Positions 7,170-31,982 of a stretch of DNA of 46,485 nt are shown piece by piece. Positions within the stretch are counted from its first letter, which is position 1; every line of letters begins with the position of its first letter. Both the position numbers and the translations under genes were made by a program. Below the pieces are notes generated by a model. That model ran no database searches and was not told where the DNA came from. It saw nothing but the letters and a program-made list of their open reading frames with translations. The stretch comes from an uncultured Thermoplasmata archaeon (GTDB lineage: Archaea; Thermoplasmatota; Thermoplasmata; Thermoplasmatales; CAYVVU01): contig CAYVVU010000002.1 of assembly GCA_964455305.1 (NCBI GenBank), forward strand, positions 1 to 46,485. Reading direction: 5' to 3'.

Positions 7170-8717
7170 TTATTCCTCTTCCTCGCTAAGAAGTGATGCT
7201 TTGATTTCCTCAAGTTTCTTCATCTTTTCTTCTATTTCTTTCTCTCTTTCATAAATTTCTTTCTCTTTCTTTTTGATATTATTTTCAAGGTTCTTCAGTT
7301 CTTTCTTCTTTTTCTCAATTTCGCGCATTTTTTCTTCAATTTCCTCCTCCTTTGCCATAATATCGTACTCTCTAGCAGCGATTTCAGCCTCTAACTTTTT
7401 AAGTTCTTTCTCCATATTTTTTATCTCTCTTTCTTTTTTATTCAACTCCTTTTCCCTCTCTTTAACATCTTTTTCTCTCTCCTCCAGAACTTCAAGTTTT
7501 TTGGAAATCTCTTCTTCTCTAAGTGACAACTCTGCATCCTTCTCCTCAAGTTCTTTCTTTAGCAATCTTATCTTTTTCATATCCTCTTCAACACCCTCCC
7601 TAAGTTTGATAATCTCCTCTCTATCCTCTTCTAATTCTTTTCTTTCTCTCTCAATTCTGCTTCTCATAGAAGATAATTCCTTCTTTTCTACTTCCAGTTC
7701 TCTCCTCTCCTTTTCAATATTTTCTTTCATCTTTCTTAAATTGTCTTCTAAAATCAAAAGTTCTTTTTCCTTGGTGTTTAATTCTTTTTCCTTTTCTTCA
7801 AGTTCTTTCTGCAAAGACCTTAATTCCATCCATTCACTTTTGAGTGAATTTTTTTCCTCATTGATTTTGCGATTCTCCTCTTCCATCTTCTCTTTTTCTT
7901 TCTTAATACGGTTCCACTCTTCATCTAATCTTTCCTTCTCCTCCTCTAATTTTTCTCTTTCCTCTTTCAATTCTCTCTCTCTTCTACGCAGATCATCTTC
8001 TCTCCTCATAATCAAGTACTCTCTGTCTATGAGTTCCTTCATCCTCTTTTCTATTTTTTTCTTATCTTCTTCAAGCTCCTTCTCTCTATCTACGACTTCT
8101 CTCCTCATATCTTCAATCACACTTTTCTCATTCTCTATCTCCTTTCTCATCTTTTCAAGCTCTTCGGCAAGAGAATCAAGTTCTTTTTTTCTATCTTTAA
8201 GTTTTTCTTCAAGAATTCTGAGTCTTCTCTCCCAAGCACGGAGTTCCTCTTCCTTTCTTCGCAGATTTTCCTCATAGTTTCGGAGACGAGCCTCTTCCAT
8301 CCTCAACTCGTAGTCGTCCTCCACCCTTATTTTTCTGCGAGAAGTTGGAATCTCAATTGGAATATCTTCAATACTTAGAGAACATTCTGGATAAAGTTCC
8401 GCGAAATACTTTGGAGATATTGAAGATGAGCGATAAGAAAAACTTCTTACCTCCATCATACATTTTTCATCTTTTGCTAAGCACACTATATTTTCAATGG
8501 CCGAATCGCCACAAATCCTCTCCTCACCTAGAAATTCGGCGAGTATGGGAATGCCTTTATCAAAAACTAGGTATCCCTCTATATAGTTTTTTCCATCAAA
8601 TTTGCTAAGATGAATATATCCTGAGAGCTCTTCTCTTTTAACGGTATCCAGCAACTCGCGGAAATTATCTTCTCCTCCGAGCATTACTTTTACAACTTTC
8701 CCGCCTGGCAGTTTCAT
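7170..8717 (-). CDS. long coiled-coil protein with a small globular N-terminal domain
   Basis: 515 aa. Residues 1 to about 130 are mixed and globular (GYIHL...GYLVFDKGIPILAEF...GDSAIENI). The remainder is uninterrupted E/K/R/L heptad-like sequence. No TM segment or signal peptide. Confidence 0.75.
   Translation of the reverse strand: MKLPGGKVVKVMLGGEDNFRELLDTVKREELSGYIHLSKFDGKNYIEGYLVFDKGIPILAEFLGEERICGDSAIENIVCLAKDEKCMMEVRSFSYRSSSISPKYFAELYPECSLSIEDIPIEIPTSRRKIRVEDDYELRMEEARLRNYEENLRRKEEELRAWERRLRILEEKLKDRKKELDSLAEELEKMRKEIENEKSVIEDMRREVVDREKELEEDKKKIEKRMKELIDREYLIMRREDDLRRRERELKEEREKLEEEKERLDEEWNRIKKEKEKMEEENRKINEEKNSLKSEWMELRSLQKELEEKEKELNTKEKELLILEDNLRKMKENIEKERRELEVEKKELSSMRSRIERERKELEEDREEIIKLREGVEEDMKKIRLLKKELEEKDAELSLREEEISKKLEVLEEREKDVKEREKELNKKEREIKNMEKELKKLEAEIAAREYDIMAKEEEIEEKMREIEKKKKELKNLENNIKKKEKEIYEREKEIEEKMKKLEEIKASLLSEEEE
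7173..8315 (-). repeat. purine-rich (GAA/AAG/GAG) low-complexity coding tract encoding the coiled coil
   Basis: Visible as long runs of ttc/ctt on the plus strand. It creates the 334-aa S/F/L-rich shadow ORF at 7273-8277. Confidence 0.6.
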
Positions 8718-17122: not shown

Positions 17123-17881
17123 GTGAAAAAATTTATATATCTCAACATCTTTTATTTATCGTTGCGAAGAGAGATAGGGATACTAACAGACGATTTCCGT
17201 GTGCTATACAAATGCACAAAGATACTTGAGGAACTTGGTAAATCCTATGTTATACTCAGCGATTCTAGAGAGTTATATAAATACCCTGTGATTCTGACTA
17301 CTAAGAATCTTCGGGGTGAAAATGTGGTATTTTTAAAAAATGTAGATGTTGATGTCAGAAGGGCTATTCCTTTGCTCTACGGAAAGAGAAGATTCAACCA
17401 CTTGTACATAGGTGTGGATCCTGGCAAAACTATGGGTCTCGCCGCATTGGGTGATGGCTTCATCCTTGAGAAAAGAAATGTATATTCTATCTCCTCCCTG
17501 AAGAAATTTGTGGATATATGGCTTGAAGGTTATCCCTCTCAGAACTATATTTTGCGAGTTGGGAACGGCTCTCCTACTGAAAGAAACGAGATAATAATGA
17601 GATTGTTCGGAAAAGTAGATATTGAGGTTGTTGATGAAAGAGCAACCTCTATAACAAAAGAGGACTCAGACGCAGCTGTGAGAATTGCTAGAATACGCGG
17701 AAGAAGGATATATAGAATACCATCGCTAAATGTAAGTGATGGCGAGATAAGGAACATTCAGCGATTAAGCAGAATAGAGAGTAACGGAAAAATAACAATA
17801 TCTCGGGAGATGGCCAGAAAGGTAATCCTCGGCGAGATAACTCTCAGGGATGCAATAGAAAGGGCACTTCAAAAAAATTAA
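17123..17881 (+). CDS. hypothetical protein with an RNase H-fold (RuvC/YqgF-like) nuclease signature
   Basis: LYIGVDPGKTMGLAALGDG is an N-terminal catalytic Asp strand. VDERATSITKEDSDAAVRIARIRG is a late acidic helix as in RuvC. The start is uncertain (GTG at 17123; in-frame TTG at 17162). Confidence 0.45.
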   Translation: MKKFIYLNIFYLSLRREIGILTDDFRVLYKCTKILEELGKSYVILSDSRELYKYPVILTTKNLRGENVVFLKNVDVDVRRAIPLLYGKRRFNHLYIGVDPGKTMGLAALGDGFILEKRNVYSISSLKKFVDIWLEGYPSQNYILRVGNGSPTERNEIIMRLFGKVDIEVVDERATSITKEDSDAAVRIARIRGRRIYRIPSLNVSDGEIRNIQRLSRIESNGKITISREMARKVILGEITLRDAIERALQKN

Positions 17882-17886
17882 AAGAT

Positions 17887-18654
17887 TTATTTTGCCCACT
17901 TCGGCTTCCTTCTCTTTCCTATTTCTCTTATAGTAAGGAATATTAGGAGGAAAGATATGAAGGCACTTATTGCAAATATTATTGGACCCCAGTTTATGGG
18001 CTTATACTCACCGTAGTAGAATTCCATACTCAAAGTTTTGTTTCCTGTATCACTGAAAACAACACCTTCACCTATTATCTTCGCCGTAAGAGTATGCCAA
18101 CCCTCATCTATGTCCTTGGGTACCCAGACGAAAGTTGCTGTTGCATTTTGTCCGCCTTTTAGCCCGTTAACTGTGGTGTTTCCTATGTACTTTCCGTCTA
18201 TGTAAAAATACACGGTGATATTTGAGGCGTCAAATTCATCCATACACTCCACGGTGACTGTGAATTTCAAGGATTTTACGACCTTTATGTGGACGGTTTT
18301 TTGGCTAATAGCCCACTTATCACCCAACTTTGCCTTACCTTCTATATATATCCCTATGGTTTGTGGAGCGTAATCTGGAGCGGTTATATTAACCTCAAAT
18401 GTATTTGTAGAGTTTGATGACCCGTTGATTGTGTTTGTAGGCCCTCCATTTGTAAGGTTGTATCCGAAGATCACAAGGTTGTAGTAGTACATATCGTATC
18501 CTTTTGGAAAGATTATTTTACACTTGAAATTCTCGCCGTTGCCTACTATGGCTGGAACTTCAACTCTCATGTTGAGCTTAGCATAACCCAGCGAATTGAG
18601 TGGAACGATTGAAATAGATATTAGGATTGCCAAAATGATAGGTGTTACCCTCAT
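17887..18654 (-). CDS. secreted CARDB/Ig-like beta-sandwich protein with a C-terminal TM anchor
   Basis: A signal-like N-terminus, two beta-sandwich-like halves (ITVYFYIDGKYIGNTTVNGLKGGQNATATFVWVP...GWHTLTAKI), many N-X-S/T sites, and a terminal TM helix plus KRRKPKWAK. ATGA overlap with the aglB stop. The GGAGGAGGT SD lies inside the aglB 3' end. Confidence 0.6.
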   Translation of the reverse strand: MRVTPIILAILISISIVPLNSLGYAKLNMRVEVPAIVGNGENFKCKIIFPKGYDMYYYNLVIFGYNLTNGGPTNTINGSSNSTNTFEVNITAPDYAPQTIGIYIEGKAKLGDKWAISQKTVHIKVVKSLKFTVTVECMDEFDASNITVYFYIDGKYIGNTTVNGLKGGQNATATFVWVPKDIDEGWHTLTAKIIGEGVVFSDTGNKTLSMEFYYGEYKPINWGPIIFAISAFISFLLIFLTIREIGKRRKPKWAK

Positions 18655-21600
18655 GTTGGATACCTCCTCCTCATAATTATGCTGTATGCCACGCCGGCAA
18701 CTACAATAACAACGCTCGCTATGGCCCAGCTCATAATCTCTGCGGTTATATCAGGCGGTTTAATGAGAACATTGCCCGTTATATCAACTTTTTCTATACT
18801 TAGCGAAGCATATGTTGCCTTTATCTCTAGGATTTTGCTTACATTATTGTTGTATACCATCAGTAGAATCCTGACGCTTCTAGCAGGGTTATCTATCGTT
18901 CTTCTAATCCTTACATATATTCTTTTGCTTTCACCGGAGTCCAAATCTATGCTATCAGCTTTGCTGTTATTGAAATATATTTCCGTGTACCATCCCTTGT
19001 CTTGCAATTCTTCGGAGTTAATGATTGTAAGGTTGAAAGTTGTCCCGACATTTCCATTATTCTTTACATCCACACCGAATTCTATGTATTGTGATGTGGT
19101 TCTGTTGTTTTTCCATGTAAGAGTTAGCGAATAGTATTCGGATACATTTACATATGCATGAGCATCAGCGAATTTATCCGCGTATTTTACCCTAAGAGTA
19201 ATGGTATTATTACCCAAAGATGCATCCTTTGGAATCAGGACCATGGCTGTGAAATACTTTGTCTCACCCGGAAATATTGTCAATTTTTCAGGTATAAAGG
19301 ACACATTCCAATTGTTTGTTAGTGAGAACTCCAATGTTTCTTTATCATTTCCGTGGTTAATCGCTTTAAAGATCAGAGGTACCCAATCTCCTACATCCGC
19401 TTTTACTTCCTCACCGACATATTCAACGCTCACATCATGTACGGAATCTCTTTTTAGATATATGTCATAAATGATGTTTCTAGCTATATCTATCTCTCCT
19501 CTCCAGTTATAAACTATTTGTAATCCATATTCGTATCTATTTACCGATACGCTCATATTGTACTTACCGACTGGAAGGTAAATCCAATATAATCCATCTA
19601 CTACAGGAATCCTGAAATCATAATTTTCTATATGGATGTAGGTGTTCAATTTCTCGTTTCCTATATATACTCCTCCACGCATTTCGTAGGCTTTTTTGAG
19701 TTTTATTTCAAACAAATTGCTTCCGGCAATCAGATCCTTTTTACCCAGAAATGCATAGTAAGTATTGTTTATTTTCAAGTAAATATATAAAGAATATTTG
19801 CCAGGAGGAATTTCATCATGTATCTCGCCATATTCATCCGCCACTAATTTTTTCTCCAAGGCAGGGTTTTGTAGTATGGCTGTTGCAAAACTTGCCTCTT
19901 TACCGCCAACCGTGATTTTCATATCTATCTTTGCTCTCAACCTTATTTTCGTTATTCTAAGCTTTATCGTTTCGTCGGAATTGAGATTTTTAATTTCGGC
20001 GTAGCCATAGTACCTGTACTTTATTCCCTCCTCTTCCTTAGTCATATCAACATTCAATGAGTAGTTTCCAGGAGGCAGGAATAAGGATAAAGAACCGTAG
20101 GTACCTCTCTGCATAATGGCTTTATAACCTTTAATTAAAACATTCGCGAATCCTGTGTAATTCTCTATCTGAACATTAAGCCTGTAAGCGGATACCAGAG
20201 GTATGTCAATAACCCCGTTCTCCATAAGGCTCAGTTCATCAAAGAATACTTTACCCTCGCTGTACGCGTATATATAATAATCACCGGGTCTTACTGTTAT
20301 GTTATGTCCAGTTGTGATGAGTTCACCCGTCGCATCATAAATATTTATTGATTCGGCGGAGGTGTTGAATTTAACTTCCACATTAACTTGAACTGGCAAA
20401 TTCACATTTCTTATTTTTTCTCCTGAAGTTACAGTAATTTTGTTTATTATAGGCGCATATTTTCTTTTATCACCAAAAATTGTTATGTTATAAGTTCCCG
20501 GTGGTAATTGAATTGTATAGAAACCATCCTTAGAATGCGTAGTATAAATATTTTCTTTGCTTACAAATTGGATATTCACGCTCTCCCAAGTGTATGTTTC
20601 ATTTTCATACATGATGTACCCTTTGAGTGTCACTGGAAGTTGAACAACCTGAATAACATACTTTGACTCGTTGCCTTCTCTATCAACAGTTTCATACCCA
20701 AGTGAAACAAGGTCAATAACGAAATCCCTAGGTGCGGTGACCGTGAAATTGCCGGATTTCGGAGTATTTATCAGATAACAGTTTCCTAACGATTTACTTT
20801 TAACGAAAAGCAGCCCTTCTCCTATACTTTCATTCTTCATTAAAACATTTCCATGCACTATAGTATTGTTTCCCAGTTGAATTTCCATATTCCTATCACT
20901 GTTAATTTTAATTGAGAAGAAAGATGAGTAAGGCGTACCAAACTGTACAACGCCTACATTGTACTGTCCAGCAGGCAAATATATCTTGAAATTGCCTTTA
21001 TCGTCTGTGTGCTCTCTCAGAAATGTACTTCCTTGGAAAATGACGACATCCGCTGGAACCTTAGTTTTGTTATTGTAAACAGTTCCGCTGAAAACATATG
21101 CTTTTTTCATGGAGATATCCACGGTTTTATTTTCGTCAAGATAAACATTAGTGAAGAATACATACTTTTCGTTACCAACGAAACATTCGGCATAAACTGT
21201 GTATATTCCTTTTGTTAGGGTCCTTTCAAAAGAATTTTTAGCAATGAAAATATCTGCTTCATGAGTAAGCTCATTCTCAATCTTAACCGTAACTTCTCTA
21301 TCACCTACCCCCATTATTTTTCCCACAACTTTGTATGCGGGATTGAGCTCCAGATTCAAAGAGAAGGATTGATTCCAATCATCAAATACTACACTCTGCT
21401 CATCGGAGATAACATTTCCTTTCTCCGCATATACCTTATAGTGACCTGGAGGTAAATAGAATCTGACTGTACCGTTAGTATCAGTATAGTTGTGATATTC
21501 AATATCCAAATCTGTTCCCTTGACCCATACGGATACATCCTCTTCCTCAGAGCCACCATATTTAATGGATATATTTAGTGTGCAGGGTTTAAGCGGAAAG

Positions 21601-24600
21601 TCCTTGGTAATTGAACCGCCAACATTAATCGTGATATTTCCTATATTCTCATATCTTTTGTCAAAGACCTCTATGGATACATTGTATCTATAAGGCGGAA
21701 GATCGTTAATTTCGTAGTATCCGTTGGTAAGGTTATCCTCAAAACTTATGTTGTATTCATCGTTTTTCAGAATCACTTTACCGTTGAACTTTACATCATC
21801 ATTATCAACTTTGCCGTTCTTGTTCAAATCCATATAGATAGCGCCCTTTGCACCTCCACCTTTAATAACGAAATCCTTCTTGATGAAGTAGTCATACAGT
21901 CCATCATGATCTTTATCCACGGGAAGTTGCATCGCCTGCTCTTCTGTAACATTAAACTTCCAGGTAGCAAGAACTGTCTTCTCGGTTAGCATTTTTTTAT
22001 CCAAATCTCCGCCCGTGGTAACTTTTATCTCCAATCCGTTACCCGCTATCGCGTATAGCCTATAATGCCCATTGGAGTCGGTAAGCACGGATGTATGGGG
22101 TATTCCATACTCATCAAAAAGTGTAACTCTAACTTTTTTCAGTGGAGTTCCATCCTCCAATCGTACATAACCCTCCACGATGGCTCCCTCATAGAATTTG
22201 ACGATGACCACATCATTTGGAAGAACCTGAGATGCAGGAGGATTAAGTTCCACAACACCTATTCCTTCTCTCTGATACTCCAGCGCCTTGTCTATCGGTA
22301 TTGCTTTCCAAGCATCACTGTGATTCTGGTAATCCTTATAGGGATTCCAGAATGCCGTTCTATAAACCAGTTTGAAGTGAGTTAAGTTCCACGCCTGCAT
22401 GGGATACTCGCTCTGCAAACTCTGTGAAATTCCCGGAATTCCATCGCCTTTACCTATGTCTTTCCCAGAATATCCTATGAATATGCGATATAGCATACAA
22501 TGGTAAAACATATCCTTGTAAGTTATTCTGTAATCCTGAACCTGCGAGCCGGGAGGAAATTCATCTGGGGAGTATTCGTTTCCGTACTGATCCACAAGCT
22601 TTATTTCATAAAAATCTATGGGAACGCTCATACCTCTCGCTTCTAGAATTCTCCTATCAGATAATTTTGCCGGAGCGTAAAATATTCCTGTATTTCTTGC
22701 GTTGAATGGAAATAATCTGTAGTCAATAGCGAAGTATCTTATGCTATATCCCGTCGCTCTCTCCAAATCCTTTAGAAGATTCAGAACTCCATCCTCGCCC
22801 AGAGTAACGAAAAGACCTTTTAATGCCACATACTTACAGTTCTTATCGGAAATATCGTTTGAATACGGTCCTCCGTATTTATCTGGGTTCTTTAAAATAT
22901 CCTCTTTGTATTTCAAAGGATCGCTAAATATCTCGTACACTTCTTTTAAGCCATCATCACCAAGATATCTCTTTATTATCCCTTCTACTGTCGCCGAAAG
23001 CTTATTATCGTTGTGTTTGTAATCACCTTCAATTATTCTGGCGGCAAATAGAGCCATAACTTCCGTCTCGTTCTGAGCGGTTATTGCCTGTCCAGCGAGT
23101 TGGTAACCATACTGGAAGTTATCCGCCACAGTCGGATGCTTCCCCCTGTGAATAGCCTCAAAACCGTAGTCCCACCAACTTATGAATGCGGGCCTATCCT
23201 CTTCAGGATATATATTAGAATCTTGTTCACTTAGCCATTCCCACGCGCGAGACCATGCATAGGTCTTCTTAGGTATTGAATACCCGAAAGCTCCGAGATA
23301 CCATGCTCTTTCCCTCTTTTCAGGTTTCCAGAACGGTGGCATCAAATCGTATATCTGCTTGTCGTAAGTGGATTTTGTTTCATAAGGTATTCCTGCATCT
23401 ACTGCACTCCAGACATTCGGCGAGATTACGAATAATGCTATTGTAAATGTAACCACATTTCTCGCAGAAAATACTCTTTTTATTCTCTCCCTCCACTTCT
23501 TAGCTTTTGGTTTCTTTTCCACCCGTACCAATTTAAGGAGTAGATAATCTATGAAGAAAGATGATGCTAAAGCAAATGCGGGAGCCGCATTAAATATGAA
23601 TCTTGCCGCAGATATGGCCATATATATTGAAACCAGAGTGTAAATTACAATAAATAGATAAACCTCATTTAGATTTTTGCGCAATCTCCAGAGTATATAC
23701 CCGAGACCTGCCAAAGCTAAGAAGAATACTCCCACACCTATGGATATTATCAAAGATCCCATGGCTGCTGGCTGTGCTTCGGCAATCGTACTGTACAGTT
23801 TTGTTTTAATGAAATATCCCTGTCCCGTAACAATGTATTTGAACAGGTCCGGAAGAAGGAAATATATAAGTACAAGTCCTATGCCTATTGCTAGTACGGC
23901 AAGAGGAAATAGAAATGTCCACGGATATCTAACGGTAATCTCAAAGAATAGTGCGAGTACGAGAAGAGCTAACATTAAAATAAGAGGTGTTAAGTACCAA
24001 TGCAAACTGGGACCGTAAACCGGGTATGCCGCTCCAAATGATACCAGCGTGAAAACTAGGGTAATCATAAAGAGATGGAGAGTACTTTGGTTCTTGAATC
24101 TATTTATGAATAGTTGCAGTCCAATATAAATCACGAGTATAGTTTCTATATAGGGAAAGCCCTGCCAAGTTAGCATTATGACTAATAGTGATGTTCCGGC
24201 TAGGGCTGAGTATATAAGAGCCAGACTATTTTCTTGCATAAAGGCACAAAATCCTGATTTTATTGTTTTCCAGCTTCGCCAGTTGTCAATCCACATATCT
24301 CTTTTTCCATATTTTATAGCTTTGAAAAAGAAATAGAAAACCCATATGGAAAAGAAAAGGACAAGCGAGTCATGGTCGGCATTCGTGGCCACACTCCTCA
24401 TCAGGTGTGCGGGGCTAACCGCAAGCAAAAACGCGGCTATTATTCCCACCCTCTTGTTGAACATTTCTTTACCCAGCAGATACATCGGTATTACGCTAAG
24501 TGCTCCCCAGATCGCTGTGGAAAGTATCAACGCGGCGTAAACACCATCGTGTAGATTTCCGAATATAGGATACGCCAAATATCCCATAGCAACAGTGGAA

Positions 24601-24848
24601 ACTGTAAAGAAGGGAGGTCTGGGATTTCTTGCCCCTAACGGATAGTTGAGCATGGGGTCATACCTTAGATAATGATGATTCTGAACAAAATAATCAATAA
24701 GTCTCTCATAATAATACGAGTCGGAACCCCCAGATACGGAAAAATCCTCAGTAACCGAAGGCTCCCAGGCAAAGTACGCCCTTATAAAGAGGGCTAGGGC
24801 GACGAACATAACAAGTATTCCTACAGTCTTCCAGTTTACCTTTGCCAT
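18651..24848 (-). CDS. aglB: AglB/STT3 dolichyl-(mono/di)phosphooligosaccharide-protein glycotransferase fused to a long C-terminal beta-sandwich repeat array and a second TM anchor
   Basis: Multi-TM N-domain with SGGSDSYYY and NADHDS loops. WWDYG at 23163-23177. The frame opens at 24920, but MAKVNWK at 24848 fits a TATA at 24877-24889. Confidence 0.88.
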   Translation of the reverse strand: MAKVNWKTVGILVMFVALALFIRAYFAWEPSVTEDFSVSGGSDSYYYERLIDYFVQNHHYLRYDPMLNYPLGARNPRPPFFTVSTVAMGYLAYPIFGNLHDGVYAALILSTAIWGALSVIPMYLLGKEMFNKRVGIIAAFLLAVSPAHLMRSVATNADHDSLVLFFSIWVFYFFFKAIKYGKRDMWIDNWRSWKTIKSGFCAFMQENSLALIYSALAGTSLLVIMLTWQGFPYIETILVIYIGLQLFINRFKNQSTLHLFMITLVFTLVSFGAAYPVYGPSLHWYLTPLILMLALLVLALFFEITVRYPWTFLFPLAVLAIGIGLVLIYFLLPDLFKYIVTGQGYFIKTKLYSTIAEAQPAAMGSLIISIGVGVFFLALAGLGYILWRLRKNLNEVYLFIVIYTLVSIYMAISAARFIFNAAPAFALASSFFIDYLLLKLVRVEKKPKAKKWRERIKRVFSARNVVTFTIALFVISPNVWSAVDAGIPYETKSTYDKQIYDLMPPFWKPEKRERAWYLGAFGYSIPKKTYAWSRAWEWLSEQDSNIYPEEDRPAFISWWDYGFEAIHRGKHPTVADNFQYGYQLAGQAITAQNETEVMALFAARIIEGDYKHNDNKLSATVEGIIKRYLGDDGLKEVYEIFSDPLKYKEDILKNPDKYGGPYSNDISDKNCKYVALKGLFVTLGEDGVLNLLKDLERATGYSIRYFAIDYRLFPFNARNTGIFYAPAKLSDRRILEARGMSVPIDFYEIKLVDQYGNEYSPDEFPPGSQVQDYRITYKDMFYHCMLYRIFIGYSGKDIGKGDGIPGISQSLQSEYPMQAWNLTHFKLVYRTAFWNPYKDYQNHSDAWKAIPIDKALEYQREGIGVVELNPPASQVLPNDVVIVKFYEGAIVEGYVRLEDGTPLKKVRVTLFDEYGIPHTSVLTDSNGHYRLYAIAGNGLEIKVTTGGDLDKKMLTEKTVLATWKFNVTEEQAMQLPVDKDHDGLYDYFIKKDFVIKGGGAKGAIYMDLNKNGKVDNDDVKFNGKVILKNDEYNISFEDNLTNGYYEINDLPPYRYNVSIEVFDKRYENIGNITINVGGSITKDFPLKPCTLNISIKYGGSEEEDVSVWVKGTDLDIEYHNYTDTNGTVRFYLPPGHYKVYAEKGNVISDEQSVVFDDWNQSFSLNLELNPAYKVVGKIMGVGDREVTVKIENELTHEADIFIAKNSFERTLTKGIYTVYAECFVGNEKYVFFTNVYLDENKTVDISMKKAYVFSGTVYNNKTKVPADVVIFQGSTFLREHTDDKGNFKIYLPAGQYNVGVVQFGTPYSSFFSIKINSDRNMEIQLGNNTIVHGNVLMKNESIGEGLLFVKSKSLGNCYLINTPKSGNFTVTAPRDFVIDLVSLGYETVDREGNESKYVIQVVQLPVTLKGYIMYENETYTWESVNIQFVSKENIYTTHSKDGFYTIQLPPGTYNITIFGDKRKYAPIINKITVTSGEKIRNVNLPVQVNVEVKFNTSAESINIYDATGELITTGHNITVRPGDYYIYAYSEGKVFFDELSLMENGVIDIPLVSAYRLNVQIENYTGFANVLIKGYKAIMQRGTYGSLSLFLPPGNYSLNVDMTKEEEGIKYRYYGYAEIKNLNSDETIKLRITKIRLRAKIDMKITVGGKEASFATAILQNPALEKKLVADEYGEIHDEIPPGKYSLYIYLKINNTYYAFLGKKDLIAGSNLFEIKLKKAYEMRGGVYIGNEKLNTYIHIENYDFRIPVVDGLYWIYLPVGKYNMSVSVNRYEYGLQIVYNWRGEIDIARNIIYDIYLKRDSVHDVSVEYVGEEVKADVGDWVPLIFKAINHGNDKETLEFSLTNNWNVSFIPEKLTIFPGETKYFTAMVLIPKDASLGNNTITLRVKYADKFADAHAYVNVSEYYSLTLTWKNNRTTSQYIEFGVDVKNNGNVGTTFNLTIINSEELQDKGWYTEIYFNNSKADSIDLDSGESKRIYVRIRRTIDNPARSVRILLMVYNNNVSKILEIKATYASLSIEKVDITGNVLIKPPDITAEIMSWAIASVVIVVAGVAYSIIMRRRYPT
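18801..22193 (-). repeat. protein-level tandem array inside aglB: at least 10 carboxypeptidase-regulatory-like beta-sandwich modules plus 2 CARDB/DUF11-like modules
   Basis: Recurrent module ends: PPYRYNVSIEV, PPGHYKVYAEKG, TKGIYTVYAECF, PAGQYNVGVVQ, PPGTYNITIFG, RPGDYYIYAYSEG, PPGNYSLNVDM, PPGKYSLYIYL, PVGKYNMSVSV. The modules are divergent at DNA level. Confidence 0.6.
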
Positions 24849-24876
24849 ACGAATCGCCCAGAGGCGATATATGTTC

Positions 24877-24889
24877 CCATATAAATAAC
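24877..24889 (-). promoter_or_regulatory. TATA-box candidate (GTTATTTATATGG on the minus strand) for aglB
   Basis: Lies about 35 nt upstream of the ATG at 24848. An ATCGCC-CAGA-GGCGAT inverted repeat at 24853-24868 sits between the box and the start. Confidence 0.4.
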
Positions 24890-24905
24890 TTCCTGATTTG
24901 AACCG

Positions 24906-24913
24906 TATAAATA
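24906..24913 (+). promoter_or_regulatory. TATA box (TATAAATA) for the flippase gene
   Basis: Centred about 25 nt upstream of the ATG at 24935. Confidence 0.45.
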
Positions 24914-24934
24914 GAAACATTAATTATCTTTGCT

Positions 24935-26368
24935 ATGTTTACCGTAGGTCGGATGCAAGAAAGTAGAAGGATATTCAGGGATACCTTACTCACATTGGTG
25001 GCTATGGTAATTTTTGGCTCTACAAATTTTGTATTTAATGTGGCAATAGGTAGGTTCTACGGCAGCGAAATTCTCGGCGAAATTTCTGCATCACTATCCA
25101 CCTCCCTTCTGCTTTCGTACTTCGTGGCAACAGGTTTTCCAAGAGCGTCTTCCAAATATATAAGCGAATATATTGGAAAAAACAAAGAAAATGAGGCGAA
25201 TTATATCTTTAAGCTAGCGCTAAAATATGGTGTTTTAATAAGTATTGCTATTACTGGTATTGCAATAATATTTTTAGAGAATATTGCATCCATATTTGAT
25301 GTATCCGAACACTTTTTTCTTTTGTCACTTCCCCTAATACCCCTCTACGGAATATATATGATTTTAAAAATGACATACTATGGATACAGAAGAGTAAAAA
25401 AGTATTTTAAAAATGAGATAATCTCTGACACCGTGTTTTTCGCATCTTTGGGGATTATAATTTTCTTTGAAAATATTTATCTTGTTTATACTCCATATAT
25501 ATTGCTGTATTTAATTTTCATTATTTTGAGCATTACTTTCTTCCGAAATAAATTTAAAATTGATAAAAATTTTAATAGAAAAAAATTACAGAAAAAATTT
25601 TTCATATACGCAGGCATAGCTTTTGTTGGTACCTTCTCCTCAATGGCTATGCGTAATCTGTCCATAATGATAAGTAGTATGTACCTACCCAAGAGCGATG
25701 TCGGGTTTTTGTCTGCGGCGTTATCGGTAAGTACGATATTTTTTCTTTTTCCAAATGCATTGAACCGCATTCTTTTACCCGAATTTTCATACACCTTTGG
25801 AAAAGGAGATAAAGAAAAATTGACCAAACTTCTTAACAAATCAACTGAATATGTATCGTTTTTCGTAACATTAGTAAACTCCCTTGGAATAATTTTTGCA
25901 CCAATAATTATAGATTTCTTTTATTCCAGCGAATTCGCTGATTCAGTAATTTTACTTCAAATTCTTTTATTTTCATACTGGTTCACTATGGTTGCTAGGC
26001 CGGCCGTTGCGTCACTCTCCGGCACAAAATATGTTCACATTTCAAATTCAGGAGGTGTTCTGGGATTATTTACTGCAATCTGTGGATGGATATTTTTAAT
26101 TCCAACATACGGTATAATTGGAACCGCTATCGGATATCTTCTGGGTATTGTTGTAAATACACTCGTGATTGTTATTTTTGCGCATAAGTATTATAGATTT
26201 GAAATCTGGATTTTGTGCAAACACTTTATTTTAATATCATTTATTCTACTTATTATTCTACTACATTTAACTGTAATATTTGCCCTATGTTTGATATGTA
26301 TATATATCATCGCTGGTAGAAAAGTTGTAATTAGCTTTTTAAAATACTTTAAGCATACTGATAACTAA
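24935..26368 (+). CDS. MOP-superfamily polysaccharide/oligosaccharide flippase (Wzx/AglR-like)
   Basis: 477 aa with about 12-14 TM segments and a polysaccharide-biosynthesis-protein-like N-terminus. It lies in a glycosylation context, divergent from aglB. Confidence 0.65.
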   Translation: MFTVGRMQESRRIFRDTLLTLVAMVIFGSTNFVFNVAIGRFYGSEILGEISASLSTSLLLSYFVATGFPRASSKYISEYIGKNKENEANYIFKLALKYGVLISIAITGIAIIFLENIASIFDVSEHFFLLSLPLIPLYGIYMILKMTYYGYRRVKKYFKNEIISDTVFFASLGIIIFFENIYLVYTPYILLYLIFIILSITFFRNKFKIDKNFNRKKLQKKFFIYAGIAFVGTFSSMAMRNLSIMISSMYLPKSDVGFLSAALSVSTIFFLFPNALNRILLPEFSYTFGKGDKEKLTKLLNKSTEYVSFFVTLVNSLGIIFAPIIIDFFYSSEFADSVILLQILLFSYWFTMVARPAVASLSGTKYVHISNSGGVLGLFTAICGWIFLIPTYGIIGTAIGYLLGIVVNTLVIVIFAHKYYRFEIWILCKHFILISFILLIILLHLTVIFALCLICIYIIAGRKVVISFLKYFKHTDN

Positions 26369-28200
26369 TACTCAATATAATAAAGACTCATATCGCTGGT
26401 TGAATATATCTTCCAGCAATAATTATCAAAATCAATATATTCTAAATTCATGTAAACACGAGGCTTTTTATTTGAATAAATATAACTGATGCCCCTAATT
26501 TTGGCAATATCAAGCACTCTTGTTTGCGGTATAGTTCCAAACCAAGGGTAGATGTTCATATATCTCAAAGAATCATAAAAGTTTCCTAATGCATTATCAT
26601 GTTTTTCACCAACAATTTTTGGATATGAAGGAATAGCGTTTTTTATATATGTGAAACACTCTATATGTTTATTTGTATACTGTGGTTCCTTTGAAACAAT
26701 AGAGTAACTAACAAAAATTGATCCGTTCAATAACAATAAAACAATGAATATGGTTTTAAGAAGCATTTTATACTTTTTGGGTATAGGTGTTGAAAAAAAC
26801 ACGATAATGGCCAATGCTATTAATATATAAACAAATGGAGCCAGATAGAAATATAATCGCTCTGCGACTGTTGTGTAACTCCAATATATTTGAGTTAATA
26901 TGATAACCGGTAAAATAAAAATCACCACAAAGCTGAACAGTTCTATGTGTTTATATTTTGAACCAATATTTCTTAATGTTACATATAAAGATGGAATTAG
27001 AAGTATTAATGCAATGATATTCCAATGCCATAAGTAAAATACTTGTTTTATAATCCTTGCAGTACTATTAGTATAGGTTTCTGCAGATAAAACCTGCCAT
27101 AGTTTTATAAAATATTCAAAAATATTGCCACTAAAATTTATCATTAATTGTTCACCTAAATATATCAAACTTCCAAGCAGGGATATAGGAATTATAAGAG
27201 CAAGCACTATAAATAAAAATTTGTTTATACTTATAAATGGTTTAATTATTGGTAAATCATTTTTTTTATACTTTATACACAAAATCGTTATAAATATAAC
27301 TAAAATATTAATACCTACAAGCCCAATCAAATATGTAGAATAATTTATGCTTGATATAATTTCTATTAAAAATTCAGGTAAAGAGCCTTGCCTTACATCT
27401 CTAATTGAGAAACCAAACAATAAGATATTCTCAAGTTTTATATTTGACCAGTAAACATAAGCAATATCCCATCCAAATATGAACGATGCAATGTAGGGTA
27501 TAGTCATATTCTTCCATAAATGAAAATTCCTCTTAATTATAAAATATAGAGTTGAGTATAAAATAAGAGTTATACCAAACAAAAACACAAAAATCAGACC
27601 TGGTCTATGTGTGATAAATATCGCGCCAAACATTGTTGACGAAATAATAAACTTTTTATATAAAGTCTTAATAGAAATTAGAGTTATTATTATTGACAAA
27701 AAGAAGATGAAATCTAAGTTAGCGTAATGGGAATGTAAAGGACCTTGATTTATTGGTCCAGTTAAATAAGTTGCCATTAAAAAAGAAGATAAAATTGCAC
27801 CTTTCTTATTTTTTAAGAGTGTTTTATATGATAAAAGAAAAACTAATAATATATCCAAGAAGTAATATAAAACCGAAAAAAATCCTACATAATATAAGGA
27901 TATATTCCCAAGCAATGAAAATTCTGCTGCCAAAATAGGAAATCCTACCGGTTTTGGATCATATATCCATTCTGTTGTCCATGGAAAAAAATTTATTTGT
28001 TCTACTTTGTGCTCATTTATAAATCTTTGTGATTGTATTAAATTTGGAACAATATCCCATGATATTATTGACTGTATTGGATATGAGCCAAGCCTAATGT
28101 AGGTTGTTACTGTGATAGAAAATAAAATTATAAATGCTAGAGCAAAATAAACGATGCGCTTTTTAGATGACTGGTAATACATATATCTTAAATGTCTCAT
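26365..28200 (-). CDS. 611-aa polytopic membrane protein of unknown family (possible GT-C-type glycosyltransferase or polymerase)
   Basis: At least 12 hydrophobic helices followed by a C-terminal soluble domain of about 110 aa. I recognise no motif. The functional guess rests on context only. Confidence 0.35.
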   Translation of the reverse strand: MRHLRYMYYQSSKKRIVYFALAFIILFSITVTTYIRLGSYPIQSIISWDIVPNLIQSQRFINEHKVEQINFFPWTTEWIYDPKPVGFPILAAEFSLLGNISLYYVGFFSVLYYFLDILLVFLLSYKTLLKNKKGAILSSFLMATYLTGPINQGPLHSHYANLDFIFFLSIIITLISIKTLYKKFIISSTMFGAIFITHRPGLIFVFLFGITLILYSTLYFIIKRNFHLWKNMTIPYIASFIFGWDIAYVYWSNIKLENILLFGFSIRDVRQGSLPEFLIEIISSINYSTYLIGLVGINILVIFITILCIKYKKNDLPIIKPFISINKFLFIVLALIIPISLLGSLIYLGEQLMINFSGNIFEYFIKLWQVLSAETYTNSTARIIKQVFYLWHWNIIALILLIPSLYVTLRNIGSKYKHIELFSFVVIFILPVIILTQIYWSYTTVAERLYFYLAPFVYILIALAIIVFFSTPIPKKYKMLLKTIFIVLLLLNGSIFVSYSIVSKEPQYTNKHIECFTYIKNAIPSYPKIVGEKHDNALGNFYDSLRYMNIYPWFGTIPQTRVLDIAKIRGISYIYSNKKPRVYMNLEYIDFDNYCWKIYSTSDMSLYYIEY

Positions 28201-28343: not shown

Positions 28344-29714
28344 ATGTCTTTAAAAATGGATTATCCAAATATTGTATTCATAGTGGTTGATTCATTACGA
28401 AAAGATTACGCTAAACCGCTGGAGAGAGAACTAAAGAAGTTAGGATTTATTTCCTATGAGAACGCTATTGCTCCTGCTTCTTGGACTCTTCCTAGTCATG
28501 CTTCTATGTTAACAGGGCTTTATACTTTAGTTCATAGAGCCCATGAAACAAAGACAAAAAAATGCCATGAAATAAAGCTTTCAGCCAACGAAATGCTTTT
28601 AACATATGAACTAAAAAGCAAATACAATTATACCAATTATCTACTTACGCCAAATATGTTCTTATCCCCTTACTTTGGATTTAAAGGGTTCGATAAATAT
28701 TTAATTATTCCTACTCAAAATCGCCTCCTCTCACAGAAAGAGTTGGACTATATCAAAAAGCTTCTATTATCGAAGAAAAGCAAAATGCGAGTAAGTCTAA
28801 AACTCATTAAAGATAAAAAATTTATACTTCTTTCCAAGGCAATATTAACATACTTTAAAAATAGGATTGATCCTATATTAGGTCTAAGCGATTGGCCATT
28901 AGATAAAGGAATTAAAAATGCTCTCAAAATTGTCAAATCGATGAATTTTAATAAACCTGCTTTTGTATTTATGAATATAATGGAAGTACATCAACCTTAT
29001 ACTCTAAAGGAACCATCCTCCGTTAAATTATATTGGGAAAACTTTAGAACTAACAAACTAAATATGGAGATCGTAAAAAAATGGAGAGAAAACTATCCAA
29101 AAGAAGTTGACTATGTAACTAAAAAGATTATAGAATTGATGGTTATATTTAAAGAAAAAGGGATGTTTGATAATTCTTTGATTATTATCACCAGTGATCA
29201 CGGTCAATTATTGGGAGAACATGGAAGAATAGGCCATGGTACATTTTTATATGATGAACTTTTAAGAGTTCCCCTTCTTATAAAATATCCAAAAAACTAT
29301 GGAATTAGGCATGAAATACCAAAAGAAACTAAGTACATATCTCTTACGAAATTAAAACCATATATATTGGGCATACTTGATGGCAAAATAGTTTCTGATA
29401 GTGTTTTATATGAGGATATTGTATTTTCAGAGTCTTATGGAATACCAGAACCAAAACCAAAAGATATAATTAAACAATCTGATTTAACAGAGCAAGAAAA
29501 GCAGAATATTGAAAAACTCGAAAAATACCGCATTACAATCTATTATAGGAATTTCAAGGGAATCTTTAATGTAACTGACTGGAAATTTGAAGAAATAATT
29601 TCATATAATCCAAAGATTGAGATCACAAAAGATATTGTAGAGCTTATGAAAAAGGAAATTATGAAATTCCTAAAGACTGCTACTATTACTAAAGTTTCTA
29701 AAATAAAGCTATAA
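28344..29714 (+). CDS. alkaline-phosphatase-superfamily 'sulfatase'-fold protein with a Thr/His variant of the C-x-P-x-R signature
   Basis: IVFIVVDSLRKDY (metal Asp), WTLPSHASMLTG in place of C/S-x-P-x-R-x-x-x-L-T-G, and SDHGQLLGEHGRIGHG. No signal peptide or TM segment. An alternative ATG lies at 28356. Confidence 0.7.
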   Translation: MSLKMDYPNIVFIVVDSLRKDYAKPLERELKKLGFISYENAIAPASWTLPSHASMLTGLYTLVHRAHETKTKKCHEIKLSANEMLLTYELKSKYNYTNYLLTPNMFLSPYFGFKGFDKYLIIPTQNRLLSQKELDYIKKLLLSKKSKMRVSLKLIKDKKFILLSKAILTYFKNRIDPILGLSDWPLDKGIKNALKIVKSMNFNKPAFVFMNIMEVHQPYTLKEPSSVKLYWENFRTNKLNMEIVKKWRENYPKEVDYVTKKIIELMVIFKEKGMFDNSLIIITSDHGQLLGEHGRIGHGTFLYDELLRVPLLIKYPKNYGIRHEIPKETKYISLTKLKPYILGILDGKIVSDSVLYEDIVFSESYGIPEPKPKDIIKQSDLTEQEKQNIEKLEKYRITIYYRNFKGIFNVTDWKFEEIISYNPKIEITKDIVELMKKEIMKFLKTATITKVSKIKL

Positions 29715-29749
29715 AAACTTTTTAAAACAGAAATTTAGGATTAACATAT

Positions 29750-30952
29750 TTATTTGCATATAATTTGATATATTTCTATAATTTTATAAGCTATATTTTC
29801 CCAAGTAAATTGTTTTGCATATTCTATAATTTTTTTTCTATCCCAATCTTTTTCTAATGCTTCTAAAATTTTTTCTGCTAAGCATTCCGGGTCTTTTGAC
29901 GGACAGAGGAAACCATAATCTTCAGAGTTTATTATTTCTGGAGTGCCGCCAACCGCCGTACCAACAAAAGGTAAACCAACGCCTAGCGCCTCAAACATTA
30001 CTGTAGGATTACCTTCACTCAAACTTGGCAGAACAAAAAGGTCGGCGGCGTTCATCCAGTATTTCAACTTCTCATCTGGAACAAAACCAAGCAACTTAAC
30101 ATGTTCTTGAAGGCCGAGTTCGTTTATTTGCTTTTGAAGTCTGTCTTTAAAGGGGCCATTACCACCTATGTAGCACATAACATCATCTCGCTCCTTAAGA
30201 ACCAATGAAATAGCATCAATAAGGTATTGAAAGCCCTTCCTTTCAACTAGGTGACCTAAACTAAATATTACTTTATATCTTGAAGGAATCTCTAAGAATG
30301 CCCTCGCTTCTTCTTTATTCATAATGGGCAATCTTTTGGGATCAAAGCCGTTAGGAATATGGAACACCCTAGAATTGAACTTCTTAAGTAAGGGTATATC
30401 TCCTTTATTAACTCTTATCAGGGCATCAGCATTTCTCCAAGTCCAATATACCTTCTCGTTCTTGGAGTTGTACTCTTCCAAGAACCAATCCCTATTCTCA
30501 TGAATAGTTATTATGGATGGAACACCGTACTTCTTGGCCAACTTTACCGCAGCGTATCCACTTGGCCATGTAAAATGGGCATGTATAATGTCTGGTTTAA
30601 ATTTTATTTTTTCTAGTATCTTTATGCTTTTTTTAAATGCCATTTCACCCCATTTTCTCTTATGAAAATCAAAAGGCAAAACAAGATCTTTTGTATAGTA
30701 TACTTCAACATTATCATAAGAATAATCTTTCATTAGTGCCTCATGTCTTCTTTTTGGCTGCATGAATTTTGAAATAAATTTGGGTATATATGGAGATGTT
30801 GCAATAACAATAACTCTATTAAAATATTTCTTAACTTCATCAACTTGTTCTTTGACAAAAACATTCCGCGGAAAACCCTCTTTCGGAGGAAATCTTGGAG
30901 AAATCACCAGAAGATTTTTATCTTTAAAGTAATTATAATCAATGTTATACAT
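29750..30952 (-). CDS. GT-B fold glycosyltransferase, family 4
   Basis: EGNPTVMFEALGVGLPFVGTAVGGTPEII E-x7-E region. The gene overlaps the upstream sulfotransferase gene by 8 nt and has its own SD. Confidence 0.8.
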   Translation of the reverse strand: MYNIDYNYFKDKNLLVISPRFPPKEGFPRNVFVKEQVDEVKKYFNRVIVIATSPYIPKFISKFMQPKRRHEALMKDYSYDNVEVYYTKDLVLPFDFHKRKWGEMAFKKSIKILEKIKFKPDIIHAHFTWPSGYAAVKLAKKYGVPSIITIHENRDWFLEEYNSKNEKVYWTWRNADALIRVNKGDIPLLKKFNSRVFHIPNGFDPKRLPIMNKEEARAFLEIPSRYKVIFSLGHLVERKGFQYLIDAISLVLKERDDVMCYIGGNGPFKDRLQKQINELGLQEHVKLLGFVPDEKLKYWMNAADLFVLPSLSEGNPTVMFEALGVGLPFVGTAVGGTPEIINSEDYGFLCPSKDPECLAEKILEALEKDWDRKKIIEYAKQFTWENIAYKIIEIYQIICK

Positions 30953-31982
30953 ACCTATACCTCTCTAGATATGCACCCAAATATGTATCTATAATTTCAA
31001 TATCTTTTTTATTCAATTCTCTTTTCCATCTTCCGGAATGGCTTTTGCTCAGGTCTACCTTCAGCATATTATCATCAAAATCAATGTTCAAAAATTTGCA
31101 AATTTTTTCAAGAGTATTTTCCGTGTTTGTAACCAAATCTTCCAGAGAAATTTCTATATATTTTTCTTTGGGTATCTTTTCTTTCTCAGCATCCCATTTT
31201 TCCAGAATTTGTTTTATTGAATAAACAGCGTCTTCCGTTGTTTTTGCACCCCAGCTCTTAGTTTTATACGAGCAAACAACATCTCTGAAATCCCGATAAA
31301 TGTGTATTATTTTTGCTTCAGGAAACATTTTGATAAGTGTGGATGCAAAGAGTATGTTTGGAGGAGTATGATCTGCCCAGATGTGCTTTTTATATTTATG
31401 TAATGGTTGTGATAGTAGTTCATCAACAAAATCGCCGGTAATCTTGAATATTTCTTCTTTTGCAAATCTTCTTGTAACAAAAATCTTTGGCTTTAAAGTA
31501 AGAGATTCTGTTCCAGTCCAATGACCTGAAAATTCTTTGATCACTATTTTGTCCAAGAATTTGTTTATTATTTTAAAATAATCTTCCCTCTCAATAAACA
31601 CGGAAATTGGTGGTTTTGTGTTAGTGTAATAGCTTTCATTTCGCCAATGTCCGGCCATTGTGTATGTATATTTGAATGGTGATATTAGATTTATCATTTT
31701 TGTTTTCTTTAGAAAATGGAAAAAGCCAGCTTTTAAAATATAAACGGGCAAAGGTGGATACAAAAGATTCATGAATTCAATGAACTTCTTAACAGCATAA
31801 TCTCCGCGGTGGGGCGTCCATTTATCGGATAGATTCTCGCATAGATCAATAGCGCCATTAGGGTCCACGATGAATCTGGTCTCAAATGGATAAACAAATA
31901 TATCTCTATGATAGGATAAAACCCTGCCAAGGATCGTTGTACCGCTTCTTCCGGTTCCTCCTATGAATATAGGACCAGCCAT
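30945..31982 (-). CDS. PAPS-dependent sulfotransferase-family protein
   Basis: 5'-PSB loop FIGGTGRSGTTILG and 3'-PB motif IIHIYRDFRDVVCSY. AGGTGGT SD 5 nt upstream. The start lies 3 nt after the dehydrogenase stop. Confidence 0.75.
   Translation of the reverse strand: MAGPIFIGGTGRSGTTILGRVLSYHRDIFVYPFETRFIVDPNGAIDLCENLSDKWTPHRGDYAVKKFIEFMNLLYPPLPVYILKAGFFHFLKKTKMINLISPFKYTYTMAGHWRNESYYTNTKPPISVFIEREDYFKIINKFLDKIVIKEFSGHWTGTESLTLKPKIFVTRRFAKEEIFKITGDFVDELLSQPLHKYKKHIWADHTPPNILFASTLIKMFPEAKIIHIYRDFRDVVCSYKTKSWGAKTTEDAVYSIKQILEKWDAEKEKIPKEKYIEISLEDLVTNTENTLEKICKFLNIDFDDNMLKVDLSKSHSGRWKRELNKKDIEIIDTYLGAYLERYRYV

Follow-up and report, generated by a model that had tools for sequence, protein, structure and literature searches.

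A double-length AglB with a beta-sandwich array, a second membrane anchor and a translationally coupled gene for a putative partner protein in Thermoplasmatota

The window analysed here (46,485 nt; positions 1 to 46,485 of contig CAYVVU010000002.1, assembly GCA_964455305.1) comes from an uncultured Thermoplasmata archaeon and carries, within a glycan-assembly gene cluster, a gene for a giant form of AglB, the archaeal STT3-type oligosaccharyltransferase (OST) of N-glycosylation, and directly downstream of it a gene for a small putative partner protein. The AglB gene (18651..24848, minus strand) comprises 2,065 codons from an ATG that opens the sequence MAKVNWK, plus a TGA stop, and lies in an uninterrupted open frame of 2,089 codons (18651..24920, minus strand); full-length orthologues are known. 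The frame and its two possible lengths had been described in an earlier reading made from the letters alone (hereafter the sequence-only reading), and its coordinates were reproduced, as were the positions of the motifs SGGSDSYYY, NADHDS and WWDYG (nt 23163-23177), which begin at residues 39, 156 and 558 as counted from MAKVNWK. The MAKVNWK start at position 24848 is the better of the two, since the closest database protein (P0001, 97% identical) is also 2,065 aa long and the N-termini of the orthologues in a 121-protein alignment line up there. The longer start would moreover leave just 14 nt to a flippase-like gene that begins at 24935, and would contain a TTTATAT box that lies, on the minus strand, some 30 nt ahead of the MAKVNWK ATG in the divergent intergenic region (24849..24934) separating the AglB gene on the minus strand from the flippase-like gene on the plus strand; this box, picked out by eye, may be the promoter element of the AglB gene.

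The N-terminal 884 residues are a complete AglB, predicted to be a functional N-glycosylation oligosaccharyltransferase, in agreement with the sequence-only reading of this part as a normal AglB; the assignment rests on a profile match, alignments to characterised enzymes, invariant motifs and the setting in a glycan cluster. Residues 1-483 (23400..24848, minus strand) form the membrane domain, in which a hydropathy scan placed 13 hydrophobic segments between residues 9 and 483, and residues 484-884 (22197..23399, minus strand) form the extracytoplasmic globular domain with the WWDYG motif and an invariant D576-N-F. The Pfam profile STT3 (PF02516) matches residues 40-471 with 77.1 bits against a cut-off of 24.5, and PMT_2 is also above its cut-off at 33 bits. 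In a phmmer search of PDB sequences, residues 9-582 align with AglB-L of Archaeoglobus fulgidus (5gmy/3waj) at an E value of 1.7e-14, pairing D43 with D47, D158-H-D160 with D161-H-H163 and T354-I-A-E357 with TIAE, and the WWDYG core aligns with the C-terminal domains of A. fulgidus AglB-S (3vu0, 3vgp). The catalytic set of GT66 enzymes, namely the Asp of external loop 1 (EL1), the D-x-D/H/E motif and the T/S-I/V-x-E motif of external loop 5 (EL5), is present. Among 121 family members, D43, D160, T354, I355, E357, W558-W-D-Y-G562 and D576-N-F are invariant, and D158 is kept in 109 of 120. The DK/MI motif region, aligned to the DAAK of A. fulgidus AglB-S, has L, I, F or V at position 584 and N, Q or S at position 587, so that the aligned positions match the canonical form of neither the DK nor the MI motif, and we treat this as a family-specific variant. 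The motif varies among accepted AglB/STT3 members.

Beyond the enzyme lies an array of thirteen beta-sandwich domains followed by a second membrane anchor. Domains D1-D11 (residues 885-1792; 19473..22196, minus strand) are transthyretin-like/CarboxypepD_reg sandwiches, most with a P-x-G-x-Y strand; D12 and D13 (residues 1793-2015; 18804..19472, minus strand) are two CARDB-like sandwiches; and residues 2016-2065 (18654..18803, minus strand) contain a disordered linker, a 14th transmembrane (TM) helix and the basic tail RRRYPT. CarboxypepD_reg (PF13620) scores 86.7 bits against a cut-off of 32.3 over four stretches of the window protein, and 231 bits over 9 stretches of the orthologue P0059; a CarbopepD_reg_2 match and weak NOMO_5th, SdrD_B and NPCBM_assoc matches also fall in the extension. 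An AlphaFold2 model of residues 880-2065, built on an alignment of 52 orthologues, has a mean predicted local distance difference test score (pLDDT) of 87.9 and consists entirely of beta strands up to residue ~2012, followed by a disordered linker and a helix at ~2036-2061; its predicted template-modelling score (pTM) of 0.46 is a mere hint of semi-rigidity. The 13 domains were cut from the strand pattern of this model and were compared by HHalign as profiles of the orthologue alignment. D1-D11 are mutually homologous, most pairs at 90-99% probability, and D12 matches D13 at 98%; between the two groups the probability is below 5%, and they are unrelated. The sequence-only reading had proposed at least ten modules of about 80-100 aa followed by two CARDB/DUF11-like ones. 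The former are borne out, with STT3 and CarboxypepD_reg both above their Pfam cut-offs and repeated sandwiches in the predicted structure, and the latter in part: D12 and D13 are homologous sandwiches, and their profile scores stay below cut-off (NPCBM_assoc 16.8 bits against 24.4; choice_anch_T 31.8 bits against 70). A CARDB profile does match the region equivalent to D12/D13 in the orthologue P0228, and N1831/G1833/N1834 and N1930/G1932/N1933, the N-x-G-N motifs of the two domains, are invariant in the 121 sequences. Foldseek searches of the PDB with the array returned just generic multi-sandwich proteins (alpha-2-macroglobulins, hydin, gp210 and the TIE protein of Bacillus anthracis) at TM-scores of ~0.1. 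The fold class of the array is thus confirmed, with no specific relative among these matches. D2 (residues 984-1076; 21621-21899, minus strand), with an SdrD_B-like Pfam match, contains acidic loops of the D-x-D-x-D-G kind (DKDHDGLYDY, DLNKNGKVDNDD) and is preceded by a short helix with a nearly invariant Q971-A-x-R974; together they may act as a calcium-binding hinge that joins D1 to the domains after it.

The hydropathy scan placed the 14th TM helix at residues 2041-2059 (nt 18672-18728), in accordance with the AlphaFold2 model and with the terminal anchor described from the sequence, and a TM helix with a polybasic tail is kept at the C-terminus of the giant orthologues. From the known topology of AglB and the positive-inside rule as applied to the 13 membrane segments, the 14th helix and the RRRYPT tail, residues 484-2040 probably lie outside the cell with both ends held in the membrane, which fits the doubly anchored topology first suggested. 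The archaeosortase A-associated profile TIGR04154 (archaeo_STT3) reaches 230.6 bits, below its cut-off of 450, and inspection of the C-terminal anchor found no PGF-CTERM/archaeosortase sorting signal; sorting by that route was rejected on this ground.

A protein twice as long as any characterised AglB, with some database relatives of only 954-1,290 aa, could in principle result from an AglB gene and a surface-protein gene that run together near 22.2 kb because a stop was missed or because sequencing or assembly went wrong. The window has no stop or frameshift there and reads as a single open frame, and none was found in more than 50 independent complete loci with a full-length ORF, including that of Aciduliprofundum sp. 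MAR08-339. The orthologues are collinear over their full length, the junction is among the best conserved parts of the protein, and most of the short entries are fragments or split genes. The orthologue gene lengths and the conserved junction thus rule out a hidden frameshift or stop, and we give an artefact practically no credence; the proposed fusion, in which a long array and a second anchor follow a complete AglB, is upheld by the full-length ORFs in these loci and by more than 120 orthologues of 2,033-2,260 aa whose alignment runs from one end to the other.

The giant form is, as judged from genome sequences, the standard AglB across much of Thermoplasmatota rather than a one-off. A word-indexed protein search gave 529 matches. 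The best 120 are 2,065-2,358 aa long, with a single exception of 1,853 aa, and nearly all have 94-100% query coverage and 30-41% identity; these 120 include the protein of Aciduliprofundum sp. MAR08-339, a cultured organism with a complete genome, and those of many Methanomassiliicoccales and Thermoplasmata metagenome-assembled genomes (MAGs). When GTDB was scanned with one genome for each species, 533 relatives were obtained, of which the best 80 are almost all labelled Thermoplasmatota and include DHVE2, Aciduliprofundum, Cuniculiplasma, Methanomassiliicoccales, Methanomethylophilaceae and the halophilic lineages with Natronoplasma, Saliniplasma and Halarchaeoplasma. Where a locus holds the whole gene, the ORF encodes 2,033-2,225 aa with a hydrophobic helix at its end. 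An exhaustive HMMER search with residues 1-880 recovered 289 cluster representatives at E <= 1e-30, most of them 2,000-2,775 aa and the longest 3,155 aa. Two loci deviate. In a Cuniculiplasma sp. MAG (L018, JAGDXN010000059.1, 8001-12770) the AglB ORF stops after ~1,570-1,590 codons, about 200 nt before the contig end, and has no C-terminal anchor, which may mean that Thermoplasmatales have a shorter form or that the assembly is faulty or a frameshift is present. In a Methanomassiliicoccaceae MAG (L047, CAVYIY010000008.1) a single in-frame TAG occurs at codon 1683 from locus position 8001 and the frame stays open after it; this could be read through or encode pyrrolysine (Pyl), which this lineage uses, or could mark an error or a pseudogene.

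The architecture of the array is fixed. The 121-protein alignment is collinear with gaps below 10% everywhere, the standard deviation of the length of each domain is 2-7 residues, and position-specific hidden Markov models (HMMs) built with the window protein left out scored the window domain at their own position best for 12 of the 13 domains, the exception being D6. Domain number, order and length do not vary, so that each position is orthologous across the phylum. This bears on the idea that the array is an adhesin or a variable host- or particle-binding surface protein fused to AglB by chance: adhesins often contain tandem Ig-like/CarboxypepD_reg, SdrD_B-like and CARDB domains, but those of the giant AglB show orthologous positions and no variation in copy number, its C-terminus returns to the membrane, and there is no distal head domain for ligand binding; we regard an adhesin as very improbable. 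Conservation is uneven along the protein, with identities to the window protein of ~42-50% in the enzyme part (50% in the globular domain), 46% in D1 and ~20% in D2-D13. No flexible linker separates the catalytic globular domain from D1. A genuine shorter relative (P0241, 978 aa) ends after D1, for which reason D1 looks as if it belonged to the basic form of the enzyme in this clade and the remaining array like an ancient expansion from D1.

The partner gene (17887..18654, minus strand) encodes a type-I membrane protein of 255 aa with a signal-peptide-like N-terminus, two Ig-like/CARDB sandwiches, a TM helix and a basic tail ending in PKWAK. Its ATG overlaps the TGA of the AglB gene exactly (ATGA), as had been pointed out. 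CARDB (PF07705) matches residues 125-193, the second sandwich, with 37.5 bits against a cut-off of 22.7 (E 2.9e-9), and an AlphaFold2 model, which relied on a shallow alignment of 6 sequences, shows two sandwiches and a TM helix at a pLDDT of 75.8. Foldseek against the PDB found tandem Ig-like sandwiches of a generic kind, and accessory subunits of OST were absent from the top 50. Word-indexed searches for homologues gave 2 and then 6 proteins, and the family was recovered from the DNA downstream of AglB in the scanned loci. In 60 of these an ORF of 233-272 aa starts between -21 and +39 nt from the AglB stop, most commonly at -3 (ATGA), and of these 60 candidates 59 are recognised by the partner HMM with E <= 3e-22. 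Partner orthologues of 30-37% identity overlap or abut the giant AglB gene in Aciduliprofundum MAR08-339 and in a Thermoplasmata MAG, and a partner of lower identity follows it in a Methanomassiliicoccales genome; the flanks of the pair are otherwise mostly unrelated in these three. Two shorter relatives that have no array also have no partner gene downstream. The presence of this near-universal and translationally coupled gene directly downstream of AglB, in 59 of the 60 loci with a candidate ORF there, suggests a two-subunit enzyme.

The sequence-only reading took the downstream protein to be of the same module type as the array. This stands only in part: the partner is unlike the eleven transthyretin-like modules, and it weakly resembles the CARDB-like last two, its domains matching D12 at 62-63% probability in HHalign. 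A further connection comes from AglB variants of ~2,770 aa, whose C-terminal ~125 residues are recognised by the second half of the HMM of the partner (E 3e-10 and 7e-8), while ordinary giant AglBs score at most 14 bits; in the one locus of such a variant that was examined (P0228, L090) no separate partner gene follows. These few cases are suggestive of either a fusion or a shared ancestry of the partner and the D13-TM segment. BLASTP of the partner against the C-terminal end of the giant AglB gave nothing significant, and the view of the partner as a close copy of that end was rejected on this account, the similarity amounting to a weak profile resemblance to D12 and to D13 with its TM helix.

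The array and the partner also stand out in their content of N-glycosylation sequons, for which the expectation of N-x-S/T was taken from shuffled sequences. Residues 885-2015 hold 30 sequons where 11.0 are expected (z 6.1), with an orthologue median of 26 against 11.6 (z 5.1) and 94% of the proteins above z = 2; the partner ectodomain holds 8 where 2.2 are expected (z 4.6). The TM core (residues 1-483; 1 against 1.7) and the globular domain (residues 484-884; 3 against 1.3) are not enriched. This roughly threefold excess over chance suggests that array and partner are probably surface-exposed and heavily N-glycosylated, most simply by their own AglB.

Such enrichment is typical of archaeal surface glycoproteins and raises the question of whether the array is chiefly an envelope building block, that is, an S-layer-like or glycocalyx protein or an S-layer anchor or spacer for which the enzyme mainly serves as membrane anchor. 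The fixed length suits a spacer, the layout parallels that of NOMO (12 Ig-like domains and one TM helix), whose NOMO_5th profile reaches 60 bits in P0059, and members of the family are found both in S-layered lineages and in others that have been described as lacking a wall, as with the Cuniculiplasma protein mentioned above (PMC5155288). Against this, a 13-TM enzyme is an unlikely stoichiometric partner of an abundant lattice protein, membrane anchors at both ends are ill-suited to a lattice, and the strict conservation of the catalytic residues indicates that the enzyme is more than an anchor. We consider an array that acts chiefly as an envelope block unlikely.

The AglB-L proteins of A. 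fulgidus and Pyrococcus furiosus are 868-967 aa long. Outside the Asgard archaea, for which multi-subunit complexes are predicted, archaeal AglB is regarded as an enzyme of one subunit with ~600-1,050 aa. With AglB-L (A. fulgidus 3WAJ/5GMY; P. furiosus) the giant form shares the 13-TM STT3 domain, the EL1 Asp, the D-x-D/H, TIXE and WWDYG motifs, an extracytoplasmic globular domain ending in beta-rich peripheral domains, and a glycan-assembly gene cluster; it differs in some 1,180 extra residues, which make up ten transthyretin-like domains beyond D1, two CARDB-like domains and the second anchor, in its co-translated partner gene, and in the N, Q or S at the Lys position of the DK motif. NOMO, a subunit of the BOS complex in the multipass translocon of the endoplasmic reticulum (ER), likewise has a long chain of transthyretin-like/Ig-like domains, a single TM helix and a short tail, and it too faces the non-cytoplasmic side of a protein-biogenesis membrane. 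It is, however, an independent protein that has its own signal peptide and carries no enzyme, and it works with NCLN and TMEM147, whereas the last two domains of the giant AglB are CARDB-like. Membership in the NOMO/BOS family is not indicated, as NOMO_5th falls just below its cut-off in the window protein (26.7 bits against 27) and the array is fused to AglB without a signal peptide of its own; the array is an architectural analogue of NOMO, and its NOMO profile matches are within-clan cross-matches. The non-catalytic lumenal subunits of the eukaryotic OST (ribophorin I/Ost1, ribophorin II/Swp1, OST48/Wbp1) are type-I proteins whose beta-sandwich ectodomains flank the globular domain of STT3, and the partner shares their gross layout of signal peptide, two sandwiches, TM helix and short basic tail. 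The likeness ends there: there is no Pfam Ribophorin_I match, no OST subunit is among the 50 best Foldseek matches of the partner, whose link to AglB comes from gene coupling, and Foldseek against the PDB connected neither array nor partner with ribophorins, OST48 or a solved NOMO structure. The best Foldseek matches of the array, the macroglobulin (MG) domain arrays of bacterial and eukaryotic alpha-2-macroglobulins and B. anthracis TIE (6FWV), are chains of similar sandwiches; at a TM-score of ~0.1, and with no thioester, bait region or other functional module in the array, the likeness is at the level of the single domain.

We propose that the array and the partner form a fixed-size, glycan-coated and non-catalytic arch or scaffold outside the membrane, mounted on an AglB of the form typical of Thermoplasmatota, with the partner as second subunit, and we hold this to be probable. 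The functional suggestion of the sequence-only reading, a scaffold at the cell surface that could position the enzyme or belong to the envelope itself, is plausible. The ectodomain of ~1,550 residues would form an arch or loop, and since both of its ends appear to be anchored in the membrane, its reach from the membrane would be at most roughly half of its contour length (tens of nm). The enzyme would probably glycosylate its own array and partner, and the partner would be a stoichiometric second subunit that likely sits beside the membrane-proximal end formed by D12-D13 and TM14, its distant look-alike. The arch may organise or shelter the site of glycosylation just outside the membrane and may add to the glycoprotein coat, analogous, but not homologous, to the lumenal non-catalytic subunits of eukaryotic OST or to the Ig-rod of NOMO in the ER. 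It may be an envelope spacer, a substrate-handling chamber, or both.

The second of these possibilities can be stated more sharply by functional analogy to ribophorins and OST48, as an arch that, together with the partner, holds or shields newly translocated, unfolded polypeptide or docks the Sec translocon and so raises the efficiency of glycosylation. D1, nearly as conserved as the catalytic domain and joined to it without a linker, would suit such a role; the conserved, co-translated partner suggests a defined complex, and in the few cases that allow a contrast the array occurs only where the partner does. Neither array nor partner shows structural similarity to OST accessory subunits in Foldseek, however, and the surfaces of D2-D13 are weakly conserved, and a dedicated substrate chamber seems rather improbable to us. 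Three observations also tell against the broader proposal of a glycan-coated scaffold. The replacement of the DK-motif Lys by N, Q or S implies that details of the substrate pocket are unlike those of characterised AglBs; the ~20% identity beyond D1 suits a spacer and equally suits weak constraint; and the Foldseek matches of array and partner point to no specific activity and to no OST accessory subunit. A bolder version of the proposal, which we put forward tentatively and consider less likely than not, would see an obligate two-subunit oligosaccharyltransferase in Thermoplasmatota, in which a NOMO-like, self-glycosylated arch of 13 domains that returns to the membrane is closed or braced by the Ig-domain partner to give both a sheltered place of glycosylation and a spacer module. 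The pair would be an independently evolved counterpart of the multi-subunit OST of eukaryotes and might also play a large part in organising the envelope of these archaea, which often lack a wall.

The genes around the pair belong largely to glycan assembly. The window encodes two GT4 enzymes, a MatE/Polysacc_synt flippase, a sulfatase, a sulfotransferase, a UDP-sugar dehydrogenase, a nucleotidyltransferase, a GFO/IDH/MocA oxidoreductase, a DegT aminotransferase, a hexapeptide acyltransferase, a DUF354 protein and an AglH-like Glycos_transf_4 protein. At 28344-31982 a sulfatase-family gene (plus strand) is followed by a GT4 gene and then by a sulfotransferase gene (minus strand); the presence of sulfatase and sulfotransferase genes hints at a sulfated N-glycan in the source organism. 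N-glycans with sulfate have been reported from other archaea, Thermoplasma among them (PMC11407970). Inside the cluster, flanked by the flippase-like gene and the sulfatase gene, an ORF of 611 aa without a Pfam match (26365-28200, minus strand) occupies the most AT-rich region of the window (GC content 0.28-0.30 against ~0.37) and has a 594-aa counterpart in a close relative (L001); it may encode a polymerase or some further membrane protein that acts in the pathway, or may belong to a horizontally acquired cassette. On the other side, an ORF of 252 aa without a Pfam match (17123-17881, plus strand), cytosolic in appearance, converges on the partner gene. Counterparts lie beside the AglB-partner pair in Aciduliprofundum MAR08-339 (L003 13337-14029; 36% identity, E 4e-45) and in the Thermoplasmata MAG (L006 11968-12678; 35% identity), and the ORF holds a stretch, GVDPGKTMGLAALGDG, reminiscent of RNase-H/RuvC-like folds. 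In a Methanomassiliicoccales genome (GCA_014361295.1, L004 12448-12771) a 107-aa thioredoxin with a weak Pfam OST3_OST6 match is encoded about 160 nt downstream of the partner; its position could be due to chance, or it could be a third protein associated with OST that is specific to this lineage.

The relatives of the giant AglB carry generic database names such as "STT3 domain-containing", "glycosyltransferase family 39", "carboxypeptidase regulatory-like domain-containing" and "peptide transporter". No description of the giant AglB, its array or its partner appeared in the portion of the literature within reach of our search, to which the AglB survey of Nikolayev et al. (2020) did not belong, so that as far as we have found the architecture is common in genomes yet apparently undescribed. 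It contradicts the usual view of the archaeal OST as a single subunit of ~1,000 aa, and its spread over cultured acidophiles, vent thermophiles and gut methanogens makes it testable in cultured organisms. If AglB and its partner together are the holoenzyme, they would offer a simple prokaryotic system in which to study the role of non-catalytic OST ectodomains, and may explain part of the surface architecture of Thermoplasmatota.

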